Positions 25,257 to 30,986 of a stretch of DNA of 32,000 bases are shown here, one piece after another. A program made the translations under genes and the position numbers. Position 1 is the first letter of the stretch. Each line of letters opens with the position of its first letter. The notes under the pieces were generated by a model. That model had not been told where the DNA came from, ran no database searches, and saw nothing but the letters and a program-made list of their open reading frames with translations. Source of the stretch: Phycisphaera mikurensis NBRC 102666 (GTDB lineage Bacteria; Planctomycetota; Phycisphaerae; Phycisphaerales; Phycisphaeraceae); NCBI RefSeq assembly GCF_000284115.1, contig NC_017080.1, forward strand, positions 3,450,001-3,482,000, written 5' to 3'.

Positions 25257-27464
25257 ATGCCCACGCTCCCCCGCCTCCCTCACGCCGTGCTCGCCGGGCT
25301 CCTGCTCTGCCCCGCGGGGGTTGCCGCCGCCGCGGCGGACACCGCTCAGAACGCCAACGACGCGCACGGCGAGACCCGCACCGCCTCCGCGCGGCCTGAC
25401 ACGCCGCTGACCACCGCGTCGGAGACGCTCATCGACTTCTCGCCGGAAGCCGGCTACGACGCGCCGCTCGCCGGCAACGCGATGACCGCCGAGCGGACCG
25501 AGCACCGGGGGCAGACCTGGCTGGAGGTCCGCACCGGCACCGGCAACGACTACCCCGGGATGAGCCTGCCGGCGCCCAACGGCTCCTGGGACCTCCGCGG
25601 CCGCCGGACGGTGGCCCTGGACGTCGTCAACCTCACGGACGAGCCGATGCAGCTGGCGATCGGCGTGAACATGCCCGGCGGCGACCAGGACGCCCAGAAG
25701 CGCATCTGGAACGCCCGCGACTTCGGCCCGCGCGAAGCCGCGACGCTGGAGATCGAGCTGTGCAACACGCCCTGGGTGCTGGACCCGCCGCTGGACCTGG
25801 TGGGCATGCGCTCCGCCCCGGGCCAAAGCCCGATCGACCTCCGCGAGATCGTCAAGGTGGTCCCCTTCCTGCGGACCCCCAAGACCGAGCACCACTTCCT
25901 GTTGGGCAACCTCCGCGCCGAGGGCATCCTCGACGTGCTCGACTCGGCGGACTTCCTGCCCTTCATCGACCGCTACGGCCAATTCAACAAGAGCGAGTGG
26001 CCCGGCAAGATCCACAGCGACGCCGAGCTGGCCGAGCAGCTCGCCGCCGAGCGGGCCGCGCACGCCGCCCGGCCCGAGCGGGCCGACGTCAACCGCTGGG
26101 GCGGCTGGACGGCCGGCCCGCAGCTGGAGGCCACCGGCCACTTCCGCACCGCGAAGCACGGCGGCATGTGGTGGCTGGTCGACCCCGACGGCCGGCTGTT
26201 CTGGTCGCACGGCGTCGACTGCGTGGACCCGCGTTTCGGCGGCACCGGCGTCGAGCACCGCGAGTCCTACTTCGCGTGGCTCCCGCCGGTCGAGGCGGGC
26301 GGGGACGACCCGCTGAGCGAGCACTACGGCGTGGGCGGCTGGGCCCCGCACGGCTTCTACGCCGACAAGGTGCCCTTCCGGATGTACGACTTCTACAACG
26401 CGAACCTGCACCGCAAGTTCGGGGACGACTGGCGGACCGGCTTCGCCGACCTCGCCCACGACCGCATCCACGCCTGGGGCATGAACACCGTCGCCGCCTG
26501 GGGCAGCGCCGCCGTCTACGGCCAGAAGAAGACGCCCTACACCGCCTTCGTCTGGATCAACGAGAGCCCGAAGATCGCCGGCAACAGCGGCTACTGGGGC
26601 CAGATCCACGACGTCTTCGACCCCCGCTTCCGCGCCGCCGTGCGGAAGAGCATCCAGGACGTGGAGACCGACGCCGGCGAATCCACCGATCCCTGGAACA
26701 TCGGCTACTTCGTGGACAACGAGATCCAGTGGGGCTCGCCGACCGGACTCGCCATCGACGTCCTGACCAGCCCGGCCGAGCAGGCTGCGAAGAAGGTTCT
26801 CGTCGAGGACCTCCGGGAGACCCACGGCGAGATCGCCTCGCTCAACGCCGCCTGGGGCACGTCCTACGCCTCTTGGGATGCGCTGCTGCGGAGCACCGCC
26901 GCCCCGCCCGATGCCGAGCGTGCCGCGCCGGACCTCCGCCCCTTCAACCTGAAGATCTACGACACCTACTTCCGGACCGTGAAGGAGGAGCTGCGGAAGA
27001 TCGCCCCGGACAAGCTGTACCTCGGCTGCCGCTTCGCGTGGCAGAACGACGAGGTCGTCCGCGCCTCCGCCCGGTACTGCGACGTGGTGAGCATGAACAA
27101 GTACGAGTTCGACGTGTCGACGCTGCGGCTGCCCGCCGACATCGACCGCCCGCTGATCATCGGCGAGTTCCACTTCGGCGCCAACGACCGCGGCATGTTC
27201 CACGCCGGCCTCAAGAAGGTCGACGACGCGGCCGCCCGCGGCGACGCCTACCGCCACTACGTCGGCGGCGCCGTCCGCAACCCGCAGATCGTCGGCACCG
27301 GCTGGTTCCAGTACATGGACCAGGCCAGCGTCGGCCGCGCCGACGGCGAGAACTACAACGTCGGCCTGGTCACCACCACCGACACGCCCCACGCCGAACT
27401 CGTCGAAGCCATCCGCGACGTCGGCGACGCGATGTACGAGGACCGCCTGGCCGCGGGGCAGTGA
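25257..27464 (+). CDS. secreted clan GH-A (beta/alpha)8 glycoside hydrolase, GH50 (beta-agarase)-like
   Basis: 735 aa; signal peptide, then an N-terminal beta-sandwich-like region. The TIM-barrel part has an Asn-Glu acid/base motif (FVDNEIQWG) and a nucleophile motif (IIGEFHFGANDRG), plus GTGWFQYMDQASVGRADGENYNVGLV. I recall this pattern from proteins annotated as agarase/GH50, so the family assignment is tentative. Confidence 0.6.
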   Translation: MPTLPRLPHAVLAGLLLCPAGVAAAAADTAQNANDAHGETRTASARPDTPLTTASETLIDFSPEAGYDAPLAGNAMTAERTEHRGQTWLEVRTGTGNDYPGMSLPAPNGSWDLRGRRTVALDVVNLTDEPMQLAIGVNMPGGDQDAQKRIWNARDFGPREAATLEIELCNTPWVLDPPLDLVGMRSAPGQSPIDLREIVKVVPFLRTPKTEHHFLLGNLRAEGILDVLDSADFLPFIDRYGQFNKSEWPGKIHSDAELAEQLAAERAAHAARPERADVNRWGGWTAGPQLEATGHFRTAKHGGMWWLVDPDGRLFWSHGVDCVDPRFGGTGVEHRESYFAWLPPVEAGGDDPLSEHYGVGGWAPHGFYADKVPFRMYDFYNANLHRKFGDDWRTGFADLAHDRIHAWGMNTVAAWGSAAVYGQKKTPYTAFVWINESPKIAGNSGYWGQIHDVFDPRFRAAVRKSIQDVETDAGESTDPWNIGYFVDNEIQWGSPTGLAIDVLTSPAEQAAKKVLVEDLRETHGEIASLNAAWGTSYASWDALLRSTAAPPDAERAAPDLRPFNLKIYDTYFRTVKEELRKIAPDKLYLGCRFAWQNDEVVRASARYCDVVSMNKYEFDVSTLRLPADIDRPLIIGEFHFGANDRGMFHAGLKKVDDAAARGDAYRHYVGGAVRNPQIVGTGWFQYMDQASVGRADGENYNVGLVTTTDTPHAELVEAIRDVGDAMYEDRLAAGQ

Positions 27465-27487
27465 CCGGCACGCGGACCCGACCGCGC

Positions 27488-28670
27488 CTCTGAGCCGCCA
27501 CATCCACGGAGTGGATGAGCCACCCGCCCAGGTGGCTCATCGACTCCGTCGATGTAGAAGCCGAATGCAACCGGAACCGCCCGAAGCCGCGACCGGGCGT
27601 CGTTCCCGCTTCCAGCTCATCCGTCCGTCTGAGCCGCCACATCCACGGAGTGGATGAGCCACCCGCCCAGGTGGCTCATCGACTCCGTCGATGTAGAAGC
27701 CGGATGCAACCGAGACGGCCCGGAGCCGCAACCGGGCGTGGTTCCCCGCTCCCGCTCCTCCGTCCGCCCGAGCCGCCACATCCACGGAGTGGACGAGCCA
27801 CCCGCCCAGGTGGCTCATCGACTCCGTCGATGTAGAAGCGGATTGCAACCGAGACGGCCCGGAGCCGCAACCGGGCGTGGTTCCCCGCTCCCGCTCCTCC
27901 GTCCGTCTGAGCCGTCACATCCACGGAGTGGACGAGCCACCCGCTCAGGTGGCTCATCGACTCCGTCGATGTAGAAGCCGACTGCAACCGAGACGGCCCG
28001 AAGCCGCGACGGGGCCGGCTTCCCACTTCCAGCACATCCGTCTGCCTAAGCCGCCACATCCACGGAGTGGATGAGCCACCCGCTCAGGTGGCTCATCGAC
28101 TCCGTCGATGTAGAAGCCGGATGCAACCGAGACGGCCCGAAGCCGCAACCGGGCGTCGTTCCCCGCTCCCGCTCCTCCGTCTGCCTAAGCCGCCACATCC
28201 ACGGAGTGGATGAGCCACCCGCTCAGGTGGCTCATCGACTCCGTCGATGTAGAAGCCGACTGCAACCGAGACGGCCCGAAGCCGCGACCGGGCGTCGTTC
28301 CCCGCTCCCGCTCCTCCGTCCGCCCGAGCCGCCACATCCACGGAGTGGATGAGCCACCCGCTCAGGTGGCTCATCGACTCCGTCGATGTAGAAGCCGACT
28401 GCAACCGAGACGGCCCGAAGCCGCAATCGGGCGTGGTTCCCCGCTCCCGCTCATCCGTCTGCCTCAGCCGCCACATCCACGGAGTGGATGAGCCACCCGC
28501 TCAGGTGGCTCATCGACTCCGTCGATGTAGAAGCCGACTGCAACCGAGACGGCCCGAAGCCGCAACCGGGCGGGCTTCCCGCTTCCCGCTCATCCGCGCC
28601 CCTACGCCGCCACATCCACGGAGTGGATGAGCCACCCGACCGCAGGTGGCTCATCGACTCTGCCGATTGG
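27488..28670. repeat. tandem array of 139-bp units (8 full + 1 degenerate), each with a 54-nt near-perfect hairpin
   Basis: Unit starts are 27492, 27631, 27770, 27909, 28048, 28187, 28326, 28465 and 28604. The (A[T/C]G)AGCCACC landmark recurs at 27515 + n*139 for n = 0-8. The consensus hairpin is CATCCACGGAGTGGATGAGCCACC / CGCYCA / GGTGGCTCATCGACTCCGTCGATG, for example 27501-27554. Confidence 0.95.
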
Positions 28671-28784
28671 GAGGCTCGACGAATCCCGAGGCGGCCGGCA
28701 GCCGCTCCATCCGCGGGATCTCCTCCCGCTTGGTTGGGGCGTCCTTCGTCGTCTCCATCGCGCCACCCGGACGAGCGACCCGAC

Positions 28785-30986
28785 TCACCGCAGGAACGCG
28801 TCCGCCAGCCCGCCGTCCACGTGGATGATTTGGCCGGTCGTCCGGCTGCTCGCGTCGCTCAAGAGGAACCACGCGGCCTCGGCTTGGTCCTCGGGCCGGA
28901 TCGGGTTGTGCGTGAGCGTCCGCTCGGCGTAGAACTGCGCGAGCCGGTTGCGCAGGTCCTCGGTCTTGCCGTTCTCGGCATCGTGCTCGATGCCGTACTT
29001 GGCGAGGCTCGCGAGCACGCGCTGGCGCGGAAACATCGTCGAGCCGGCGACGACGGTCGCGGGAGCGATCGCGTTCACGCGGACCGTCGGGCTCATCTCC
29101 ACGGCCAGCTCGCGAACGAGGTGATCCGCCGCGGCCTTCGAGCAGTCGTAGGCGACGCTGCCCTTCTTCGCGACCACGGCGTTGACGCTTGTCGTGAGCA
29201 CGACCGAGCCCTCGAGGCCTTGGGCGTCGAAGACGGGCTTCATCTCCCAGACGGCGTTGTACGAGCCGCGTACGTTGACGTCGAAGGTGAGCTGCCACTG
29301 CTGCGGCGTCACCTGCCCGGTCGCCGGGTCCTGCGGGACGAAGACGCCGGCGGTGACGACGAGGTGGTCGATGCCGCCGTAGGCGAGCACCGCGTGCTTG
29401 ATCAGGCCGGCGAGCGACACCGTGTCGGTGATGTTCGCGGCGGCCGCGGTCGCTGGACCGCATCCCGAGACGCCCGTCCCCGCGACGCCGATGCCCTGGC
29501 CGTACGCGGCCGTCAGATCGTCGGCGGTTTCCTGGGCGGCCTCGAGCTTCATGTCGGCGGAGACGATGTGCCCGCCCTGGGCGGCCAGCTTCTCGGCCAC
29601 GGCCCTGCCGATGCCCGAGCCGGCGCCGACGACGACGACCACGCGGCGGGCCAGCGGCTTCTCGGCGGGCATCCGCTGGAGCTTCGCCTCCTCGAGCGCC
29701 CAGTATTCGATGTCGAAGGCCTCCTGCTGGGGCAGCCCGACGTACGCGTCGATCGCCTCGGCCCCCCGCATCACCTCGACGGCGCAGCAGTAGAACTCGG
29801 CGGTGACGCGGCTCTCGCTCTTGTTCTTGCCCCACGCGATCAAGCCCAGGCCGGGGATGAGCACGACCGTGGGGTTCGGATCCCGCATCGCGGGCGAGTC
29901 GGGCTTCTTGCAGGCTTCGTAGTAGCTCCGGTAGTCGGCGCGATACCTCTCGAGGCCCTCGTCGAGCCGCTGCTTGAGCACGTCAACGTCGCCGGACGCC
30001 GGATCCCAGTCGACGTAGAGCGGCTTGATCTTCGTCCGCAGGAAGTGGTCCGGGCAGGAGGTGCCCAGCTCGGCGAGGCGGGCGGCGTCGTGCGAGTTGA
30101 CGAACTGCAGCACGCTCTCGCGATCGTCGACCGTGCCGATGAAGCGCTGCTGCTGCGAGACGCGGCCGCGGAGCCAGGGAAGGACTTGCACGAGCAGTGC
30201 CTCACGCTCGTCGAGTCCCGGGGTGCGGTACTTCGCACCGCCGAAGGTCTGCTCGTGCTTGTCGTGGTCGGCGATGTAGCGAGCGGCGGTGTCGATCAGG
30301 TCCAGCGAGAGGTCGTAGCAGGCTCTCGCGTCGTCGTGCCAGTTGATGAGCCCGTGAGCCGCCATCAGCAGGCCTTCCAGCCGCGGGTTCTTCTTCTGCT
30401 CCTCGTGCATGAGCAGGCCCAGCTCGAAGCCGGGCCGCATCCACGGCACCCAGCCCAGCCGCCCGCCCCAGATTGTCTGCGTCAGCTCCTGGTTGTTCTT
30501 CGAGGCCGCCACCGCGATCACCGCGTTGGGGTGCATGTGGTCGACGTGCCGGGCGGGCAGAAAGGCGTGCAGCGGCGTGTCGATGCTCGACGCCCGCGGA
30601 TTCAAGTCGAAGGTGCAGTGCCTGTAGTTGGCGACCTGCTCGTCCTCGGCCGGCGTCTTGAGGCCGGTGTCCGAGCGGGCTTCGTAGGACGCCTTCAGCT
30701 GCTCCAGGCTCGCCATCGAGAGCGAGGCGAAGTTCTCTCTCTTCGACGTCCGCAGGTCGCCGCCTGAGCCCTTCACCCAGAGCACGTCGACCTCTTCGCC
30801 GGTGAGCGGGTCCTTCTGCTTGACCTTCGAGGAGGTGTTGCCGCCGCCGGTGTTGGTGATCCGCTGGTCGGCGCCGAGGATGTTGGAGCGGTAGACGAGG
30901 GCGTCGACCGGATCGGAAGGCGCCTCGGCGTCGTTCCAGAGGTACGCGACGTGGGGGCTGTTCTTCAGTGCGGCGGGATCGGGCAT
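28785..30986 (-). CDS. bifunctional rhamnulose-1-phosphate aldolase / short-chain dehydrogenase
   Basis: 733 aa; N-terminal class II aldolase/adducin-like region (NTGGGNTSSK, WVKGSGGDL, HVDHMHPNAVIA). C-terminal SDR domain (VVVVGAGSGIGRA, YDCSKAA). This architecture matches the RhaEW/YuxG-type enzymes of L-rhamnose catabolism. Confidence 0.88.
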   Translation of the reverse strand: MPDPAALKNSPHVAYLWNDAEAPSDPVDALVYRSNILGADQRITNTGGGNTSSKVKQKDPLTGEEVDVLWVKGSGGDLRTSKRENFASLSMASLEQLKASYEARSDTGLKTPAEDEQVANYRHCTFDLNPRASSIDTPLHAFLPARHVDHMHPNAVIAVAASKNNQELTQTIWGGRLGWVPWMRPGFELGLLMHEEQKKNPRLEGLLMAAHGLINWHDDARACYDLSLDLIDTAARYIADHDKHEQTFGGAKYRTPGLDEREALLVQVLPWLRGRVSQQQRFIGTVDDRESVLQFVNSHDAARLAELGTSCPDHFLRTKIKPLYVDWDPASGDVDVLKQRLDEGLERYRADYRSYYEACKKPDSPAMRDPNPTVVLIPGLGLIAWGKNKSESRVTAEFYCCAVEVMRGAEAIDAYVGLPQQEAFDIEYWALEEAKLQRMPAEKPLARRVVVVVGAGSGIGRAVAEKLAAQGGHIVSADMKLEAAQETADDLTAAYGQGIGVAGTGVSGCGPATAAAANITDTVSLAGLIKHAVLAYGGIDHLVVTAGVFVPQDPATGQVTPQQWQLTFDVNVRGSYNAVWEMKPVFDAQGLEGSVVLTTSVNAVVAKKGSVAYDCSKAAADHLVRELAVEMSPTVRVNAIAPATVVAGSTMFPRQRVLASLAKYGIEHDAENGKTEDLRNRLAQFYAERTLTHNPIRPEDQAEAAWFLLSDASSRTTGQIIHVDGGLADAFLR

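Follow-up and report, generated by a model that had tools for sequence, protein, structure and literature searches.

The tandem array of 139-nt units found in a 32,000-nt window of Phycisphaera mikurensis NBRC 102666 (positions 3,450,001 to 3,482,000 of contig NC_017080.1, hereafter the window) is best read as a tandem cluster of species-private REPIN/BIME-like repeats, and we put the probability of this reading at roughly 0.65. The array represents a new sequence family of an otherwise ordinary kind of bacterial intergenic repeat, and no publication on these repeats in P. mikurensis was found in the literature searched. The small genome of this planctomycete (a 3.80-Mb chromosome and an 81-kb replicon, 73 % GC) carries several unrelated REP-like families, mostly as tandem arrays, and a family without an obvious transposase partner offers a test case for whether such repeats are selfish, domesticated, or both.

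A single long-period array was detected in the window by TRF (27490-28667), with a period of 139, 8.5 copies, 92 % matches and 0 % indels, which bears out the claim of a first-pass annotation that unit length is strictly kept in tandem. For the unit table, eight units were taken from 27492 in 139-nt steps. They are followed by a decayed ninth unit that fades near 28706, the last match to the unit profile being 28606-28706 (nhmmer). Further decayed units in the array flanks were not supported, as the left flank is at chance level and the right flank gave p ~0.03. Within the array, cores of two types, A and B, occur in alternation 17 times, with linkers of 6 nt and 79 nt throughout (Table 1).

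Table 1. Positions of the array, its parts, the flanking genes and related loci; positions prefixed C1 lie elsewhere in the genome, all others are counted within the window.
Feature	Position	Strand	Remarks
Whole array	27490..28706	+	8 full 139-bp units (27492-28603) and a decayed ninth; TRF, nhmmer
A-type core, first of 8	27531..27557	+	copies at 27531 + 139 x (0..7); pattern census
B-type core, first of 9	27498..27524	-	copies at 27498 + 139 x (0..8)
6-nt junction between facing cores (loop of the long hairpin)	27525..27530	+	recurs every 139 nt
79-nt spacer, first of 8	27558..27636	+	one per 139 nt
Decayed terminal A-type core closing the array	28645..28675	+	inverted repeat I2, 77 % complementary
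Upstream gene, 735 aa	25257..27464	+	weak glycoside-hydrolase-like Pfam signal; codon-position GC
Downstream gene, 733 aa	28785..30986	-	class II aldolase and short-chain dehydrogenase domains (RhaEW-like)
139-bp arrays	C1 128k, 198k, 456k, 505k, 678k, 1099k, 1166k, 2014k, 2866k, 2934k, 3677k		
112-bp variant of the 139-bp unit	C1 3534k		
RAYT-like genes	C1 3005.6k and 3573.6k		flanks are their own repeats, not the GGTGGCTCA core
E. coli-like RAYT	C1 1041k		flanked by a classic GTAG-tagged palindrome
RAYT	C1 3788k		flanked by the 103-bp family
~350-aa Y1/HUH-like class	C1:199287-200342		paralogues e.g. at 582487, 584107, 954307, 959046, 1201607, 1205537, 3485896

The first-pass annotation had described offsets 1-66 of the unit as one hairpin module. 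Instead, two neighbouring elements meet in this stretch, each contributing one copy of a 27-nt REP-like core; the two copies are inverted relative to one another and differ in their stems (TCCAC/GTGGA vs TCGAC/GTCGA). The core has the form GGTGGCTCA-N5-YCC-N5'-TGTRG and combines a conserved head of 9 nt (GGTGGCTCA) with a 7-bp hairpin, whose loop is YCC, and a tail reading TGTRG. All eight A-type copies in the window are identical, with the stem TCGAC/GTCGA, the loop TCC and the ending TGTAG, and the B-type core, read on the minus strand, has the stem TCCAC/GTGGA, likewise the loop TCC, and ends in TGTGG. Two B-type copies (at 27776 and 27915) carry a wobble-type change, namely plus-strand T-to-C at 27794 and 27933, positions that had been given correctly. 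Together, the facing cores build a long hairpin of 25 positions, 23 of them paired, with a 6-nt loop, and either strand has this hairpin as its minimum-energy fold (62-nt module, z = -7.5 and -7.7 against shuffled controls). Both arms of the long hairpin are small hairpins in their own right (left ATCCAC-GGA-GTGGAT, right ATCGAC-TCC-GTCGAT), and the two mismatches of the long hairpin sit exactly where the inner stems of A and B differ. The compensated swap of C-G to G-C thus keeps the 7-bp hairpin of each arm and breaks the long hairpin at two positions.

The contrast that had been claimed between an invariant module and a variable tail holds in the eight window units, where 4 columns vary in offsets 1-66 (1, 7, 25 and 37) as compared to 26 in offsets 67-139 (Fisher exact p = 2.1e-5). 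As had been noted, units 1-3 have C and units 4-8 have T at loop offset 37, the 6-nt junction reading CGCCCA and CGCTCA, respectively. A variant placed at offset 8 of unit 4 is real but was off by one and belongs at offset 7 (27915). It is a C-to-T change in a weak outer extension of the stem, so that the statement that T-to-C is the only stem substitution is true for the 25-position stem but not beyond it.

With 33 full units in a single genome, the family allows the constrained parts of a REP-type repeat to be told from the others, in what amounts to a clean natural experiment. In the alignment of these units from all arrays, the facing-core doublet is almost invariant and the spacer is variable, and the module/tail contrast reappears genome-wide, with a mean pairwise diversity (pi) of 0.028 at offsets 8-66 versus 0.213 in the rest (30 units, Mann-Whitney p = 8e-11). 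The 79-nt spacer, which comprises the tail of the first-pass annotation together with offsets 1-6 of the next unit, is a mosaic in the window, variable in sequence, fixed in length, and pyrimidine-rich in its 3' part. Most arrays have a spacer of 79 nt between the TGTRG ends, and none departs from 77-80 nt, not even those at 1099k and 1166k, where the spacer sequence has largely diverged. Tail length is identical in 31/33 units, and for at least one well-supported site, in addition to the site in unit 3 that had been proposed earlier, the loss of 1 nt offset by the gain of 1 nt close by is the best reading. Between the GGTGGCTCA heads, the junction spans 6 nt in the window array and 6-14 nt in sister arrays. 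Since core, spacer and core form a constant whole and the junction varies, we take the element to be a REPIN-like unit of 133 nt, repeated at distances of 6 nt to give the array. Solo elements with their heads outward and the tendency of most arrays to start with an A-type core agree with this reading; examples are a near-solo 133-nt element (C1:2934576-2934708) and a solo 92-nt relative (C1:1844918-1845009), both with the conserved head outward. Cores that are frozen in sequence and a spacer that is frozen only in length argue that the two ends are recognised together with a defined distance between them.

Exchange between units, rather than simple divergence, had been proposed for the tails, whose named variants were all found, and two lines of evidence agree with it. 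In the eight window units, 53/105 pairs of the 15 informative biallelic sites fail the four-gamete test, which requires at least 6 exchange or recurrent-mutation events, and when all 33 units are placed in a maximum-likelihood tree, the eight window units do not group by array (6 label changes are needed) but lie beside units of the arrays at C1 128k, 456k, 678k and 2014k. A distance-dependent (PHI-like) recombination test on the window units was not significant (p = 0.38). Variants of the window recur elsewhere: the T-to-C change at offset 25 is also present in two units at 128k and in one at 3677k, and the unit-3 allele is also found at 678k, with a similar form at 128k. The reading of unit 3 as a compensated 1-nt indel stands, but not as an event private to this array, and the presence of window variants in other arrays points to old haplotypes common to several loci instead of array-private events. 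These shared haplotypes spread by exchange or unit copying.

A genome-wide pattern search returned 125 exact cores (strands 58 vs 57), as compared to 0 matches for a reversed control pattern, and the 5-nt stem is fully complementary in 114 of them. Among the complementary cores, four stem sequences occur (TCGAC, TCCAC, CCGCC and CGCAC). Of all core copies, ~60 % end in TGTAG and ~40 % in TGTGG. If two mismatches are allowed, 149 cores fall into 28 clusters, within which orientation strictly alternates; nearly all cores lie outside ORFs with coding-type codon GC. The 139-bp unit recurs in ~12 further arrays of the same genome, and the CCGCC version of the core, combined with other linkers, builds a second array family with periods of 46 and 193-263 bp. 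Beyond P. mikurensis, the core pattern was absent from 40 relatives, and a search of genome and metagenome contig collections with a fairly degenerate pattern gave 226 matches, all single and 0 with a 5/5 complementary stem. On this sequence comparison, the repeat family is private to one species among those searched.

The chromosome also holds long-period arrays of several unrelated hairpin families, which occupy 79 stretches and 36 kb in total. A second hairpin-repeat family, with ~164 matches to a 15-nt head and arrays of 96-138 bp periods (e. g., C1 47461-47955, 1576906-1577755 and 3788319-3788797), has a RAYT-like gene (3787740-3788270) between its doublets. A third tandem family consists of 106-108 bp units with two 17-nt perfect palindromes each in ~15 arrays (e. 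g., C1 895872-896491, 2240573-2241325 and 3547340-3548051), with no transposase seen adjoining these. At C1:1345941-1349771, several arrays of a 336-bp repeat occupy ~4 kb without genes according to a crude gene finder, and two CGTGGCTCA core variants lie just upstream of them. Among seven REP-like families examined, five begin with GGTGNC, namely the GGTGGCTCA core, the repeats flanking the RAYT genes at 3005k and 3573k, the 103-bp family, and the repeat flanking the ~350-aa class; the motif was noticed post hoc in a genome of high GC content and could be a shared recognition tag in this lineage.

The genome encodes at least five classes of Y1/HUH genes at ~19 loci, two of them PF01797 genes and the further classes recovered via tblastn. 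Among these ~19 loci, no Y1/RAYT gene is flanked by the GGTGGCTCA core; four RAYT-like classes are each flanked by a different repeat of their own. The ~350-aa Y1/HUH-like class has 12-13 copies and a borderline PF01797 score (22.8 bits vs a cut-off of 23), with conserved untranslated ends and short GGTGTCCAGGCCCCGG-type repeat arrays on both sides, and looks like an active IS-like element. One copy lies 361 bp from the 198k array and truncates a core, which looks like an insertion at the array edge; adjacency of this kind is expected by chance about one time in four. Another copy lies 3.9 kb beyond the window. With the exception of the probable insertion at 198k, the core nearest to any intact RAYT is >7 kb off, and 59 RAYT loci of relatives contained nothing like the GGTGGCTCA core. 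A synteny check of the 1166k array in 19 relatives showed no Y1 homologue less than 1.5 kb away from the orthologous ABC gene. The gene C1:1845291-1846535 was rejected as a transposase partner, as it encodes a 414-aa endonuclease/exonuclease/phosphatase-like protein; this gene is bracketed by a solo element and a CCGCC-core array. One of the Y1/HUH enzymes may mobilise the family in trans.

The reading of the array as a REPIN/BIME-like cluster may be spelled out as follows. An element would run from an A-type core through a 79-nt spacer to a B-type core in inverted orientation (133 nt), and elements placed head to head 6 nt apart would bring two cores face to face in the 62-nt near-perfect hairpin. 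The cores are presumably conserved because a folded single strand is recognised by a protein, most likely a Y1/HUH (RAYT-like) transposase acting in trans, so that only copies with intact cores would propagate or be retained; the spacer may serve as a length-constrained linker. Changes in array length and the reshuffling of units would come from in-register unequal recombination and from gene conversion, whether inside one array or from one array to another, and this would yield both the exact period and the mosaic tails.

A more novel reading would be an orphan REPIN family that has become independent of a neighbouring transposase and is kept by host-level selection. A 79-nt spacer strictly held in length, with compensated indels, near-invariant cores at 13 loci, and one-sided wobble in the stems (see below) would point in this direction. 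We nevertheless regard it as rather unlikely. If it were true, both cores of an element would be read jointly, with their distance fixed and on one strand in particular, either by a dimeric protein or as a folded transcript, and the arrays would serve the cell in some way, for example by helping it to cope with convergent transcription.

A similarly doubtful proposal concerns transcription itself and holds that the units act as RNA, their hairpins shielding the 3' ends of convergent mRNAs from exonucleases or causing pausing or termination, with selection on the minus strand. The setting of the window array invites this idea, as it fills a convergent gene gap, beginning 25 nt after the stop codon of the 735-aa gene and ending ~80 nt before that of the aldolase-dehydrogenase gene. 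Moreover, E. coli REPs are reported as 3'-UTR regulators, and as RNA the minus strand is more stable than the plus strand (-83 vs -65 kcal/mol, z = -6.1). Genome-wide, by crude gene calls from codon-position GC, clusters occupy convergent or co-directional gene gaps, one possibly being divergent. However, the sequence 3' of the hairpin is AGAAGCC, without a T/U run, a scan of 27000-29300 returned 0 terminator- or promoter-like sites, and no Rfam family reached its gathering score. Array orientation, furthermore, is not fixed relative to flanking genes, with 5 minus vs 3 plus among the 8 arrays in co-directional gaps, and shows no bias relative to replication direction (7/14 co-oriented).

The strand argument goes back to the first-pass annotation, which had taken the T-to-C changes as a weak hint at a functional minus strand. 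Across the 33 units, all five stem transition sites are plus-strand G-to-A or T-to-C, changes that leave a G.T or G.U wobble on the minus strand and an A.C mismatch on the plus strand; non-stem columns have 21 sites of this wobble type vs 30 of the opposite type. The bias of 5 sites against 0 goes in the proposed direction, but is not significant by itself (binomial p = 0.06), and against non-stem columns it gives p = 0.017 (Fisher). The B-type core, which has the minus strand as its sense strand, contains four of these five sites, so that a model in which every core folds on its own sense strand fits the result just as well. Transitions of the opposite type were seen in three decayed terminal cores. 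The minus-strand hint is thus slightly stronger than it first was, and still weak and unproven. In addition, stems within the 139-bp family never covary, the sequence being invariant including loops and flanks, which fits protein recognition better than a pairing requirement alone.

Several simpler assignments were considered and rejected. The array is not a known structured RNA, as the only Rfam matches, to mir-9080 at a permissive threshold, are spurious (29-31 bits vs a gathering score of 100), nor an intrinsic terminator, since the GC-rich hairpin has no following T run and the scan gave 0 sites. It is not a CRISPR array either, as its "spacers" are homologous to one another (~80-95 % identity); a genuine CRISPR-like array exists at C1:768789-772775, with ~60 repeats of ~30 nt, unrelated spacers and a period of ~66. 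ORFs of 64-127 aa that cross the array were not accepted as genes either, since the 139-nt period cannot be divided by 3 and the frame shifts from unit to unit. In annotation, these arrays should accordingly not be called CRISPRs, genes or sRNAs. At the 3' end of the aldolase-dehydrogenase gene, 28798-28828 has a borderline similarity to the tail-to-core junction of the unit (9/300 shuffles scored as high), which is probably due to chance.

A further and very unlikely explanation sees the arrays as DNA sites that the host maintains for a nucleoid or topology protein, or as insulators separating convergent genes, with period and spacer setting the phasing. The spacer length that is strictly held despite 21 % diversity, with compensated indels, would suit such sites, as would cores conserved without a cognate transposase nearby and the location of arrays at gene 3' ends. 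A family restricted to one species among those searched would, however, be odd for a housekeeping function, arrays with the same core differ in period (46, 112, 193-217 and 263 bp), and the covarying stems (four stem types) point to a folded single strand and not to a duplex site. Least probable of all is a neutral satellite whose hairpin is kept by templated repair or short-tract gene conversion instead of selection: exchange is clearly active, but arm-versus-arm correction would erase the two mismatches that are present in essentially every unit of every array, and the tracts that shuffle tails would also cover the adjacent cores, so that conversion alone cannot give a 7-fold difference in diversity.

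The preferred reading as REPIN/BIME-like repeats can also be set against the definitions of known elements. The core, at 27 nt, falls within the 20-40 nt of a short imperfect palindrome and is present in many copies and extragenic, and its inverted hairpin doublets are better conserved than their surroundings, as expected of REPs; furthermore, two alternating subtypes with fixed linkers stand in tandem as in BIME-2. A REPtron, that is, a cognate RAYT flanked by the same REPs, was not found among the ~19 Y1/HUH loci. As this cognate RAYT was not found and the fit to the 5' GTAG tag is doubtful, the family is filed as REPIN/BIME-like.

With MITEs, the element shares its non-coding 133 nt, inverted termini (27 nt) and presence at many loci. 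Its termini, in contrast, are themselves hairpins, a tandem organisation is atypical of MITEs, and no target-site duplication is visible at the element. Closer parallels are offered by BIME-2 of E. coli, in which Y and Z2 REPs alternate with fixed linkers, the GTAG stands at the 5' side, and gyrase, IHF or Pol I is bound. BIME-2 and the window array have in common the alternating subtypes, one short and one long linker, and a location in 3' gaps (PMC2817692). They differ in that the 79-nt linker is longer here and in that TGTRG lies 3' of the hairpin, as opposed to GTAG at its 5' side.

REPs are defined by a GTAG tetranucleotide at the 5' foot of the hairpin, and the GTAG superfamily comprises clustered families with members in Planctomycetes (Di Nocera et al. 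2013, PMC3733652). Like these, the core is a short stem-loop with an unpaired conserved tag and forms dimers with different stems (PMC3733652). The two units of a REP heterodimer may each fold by themselves or join in a single large stem-loop, and in the head-to-head and tail-to-tail (HH/TT) dimers of the superfamily, as a rule of thumb, one dimer type has a conserved spacer and the other a variable one (PMC3733652). The difference lies in the tag, as GTAG occurs in only ~60 % of cores, on the opposite (3') side of the hairpin and overlapping its last stem pair; the invariant feature here is the 9-nt head GGTGGCTCA.

A further counterpart is found in P. fluorescens SBW25, where two REP types alternate at fixed spacings in tandem arrays (GI-GIII at 112 and 72 bp, up to 12 of each, 11 arrays), and where solo REPs were interpreted as decayed doublets (Bertels and Rainey 2011, PMC3116915). 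In SBW25, each group has a RAYT beside its own REPIN cluster, whereas no Y1 gene is flanked by the core in the window family. The two systems also have unrelated sequences, belong to different phyla, and differ in layout, as the repeats described here mostly form arrays instead of being dispersed as single REPINs. In both, the repeats are inverted REP doublets with a spacer, they form hairpins, and they are better conserved than their surroundings (PMC3116915).
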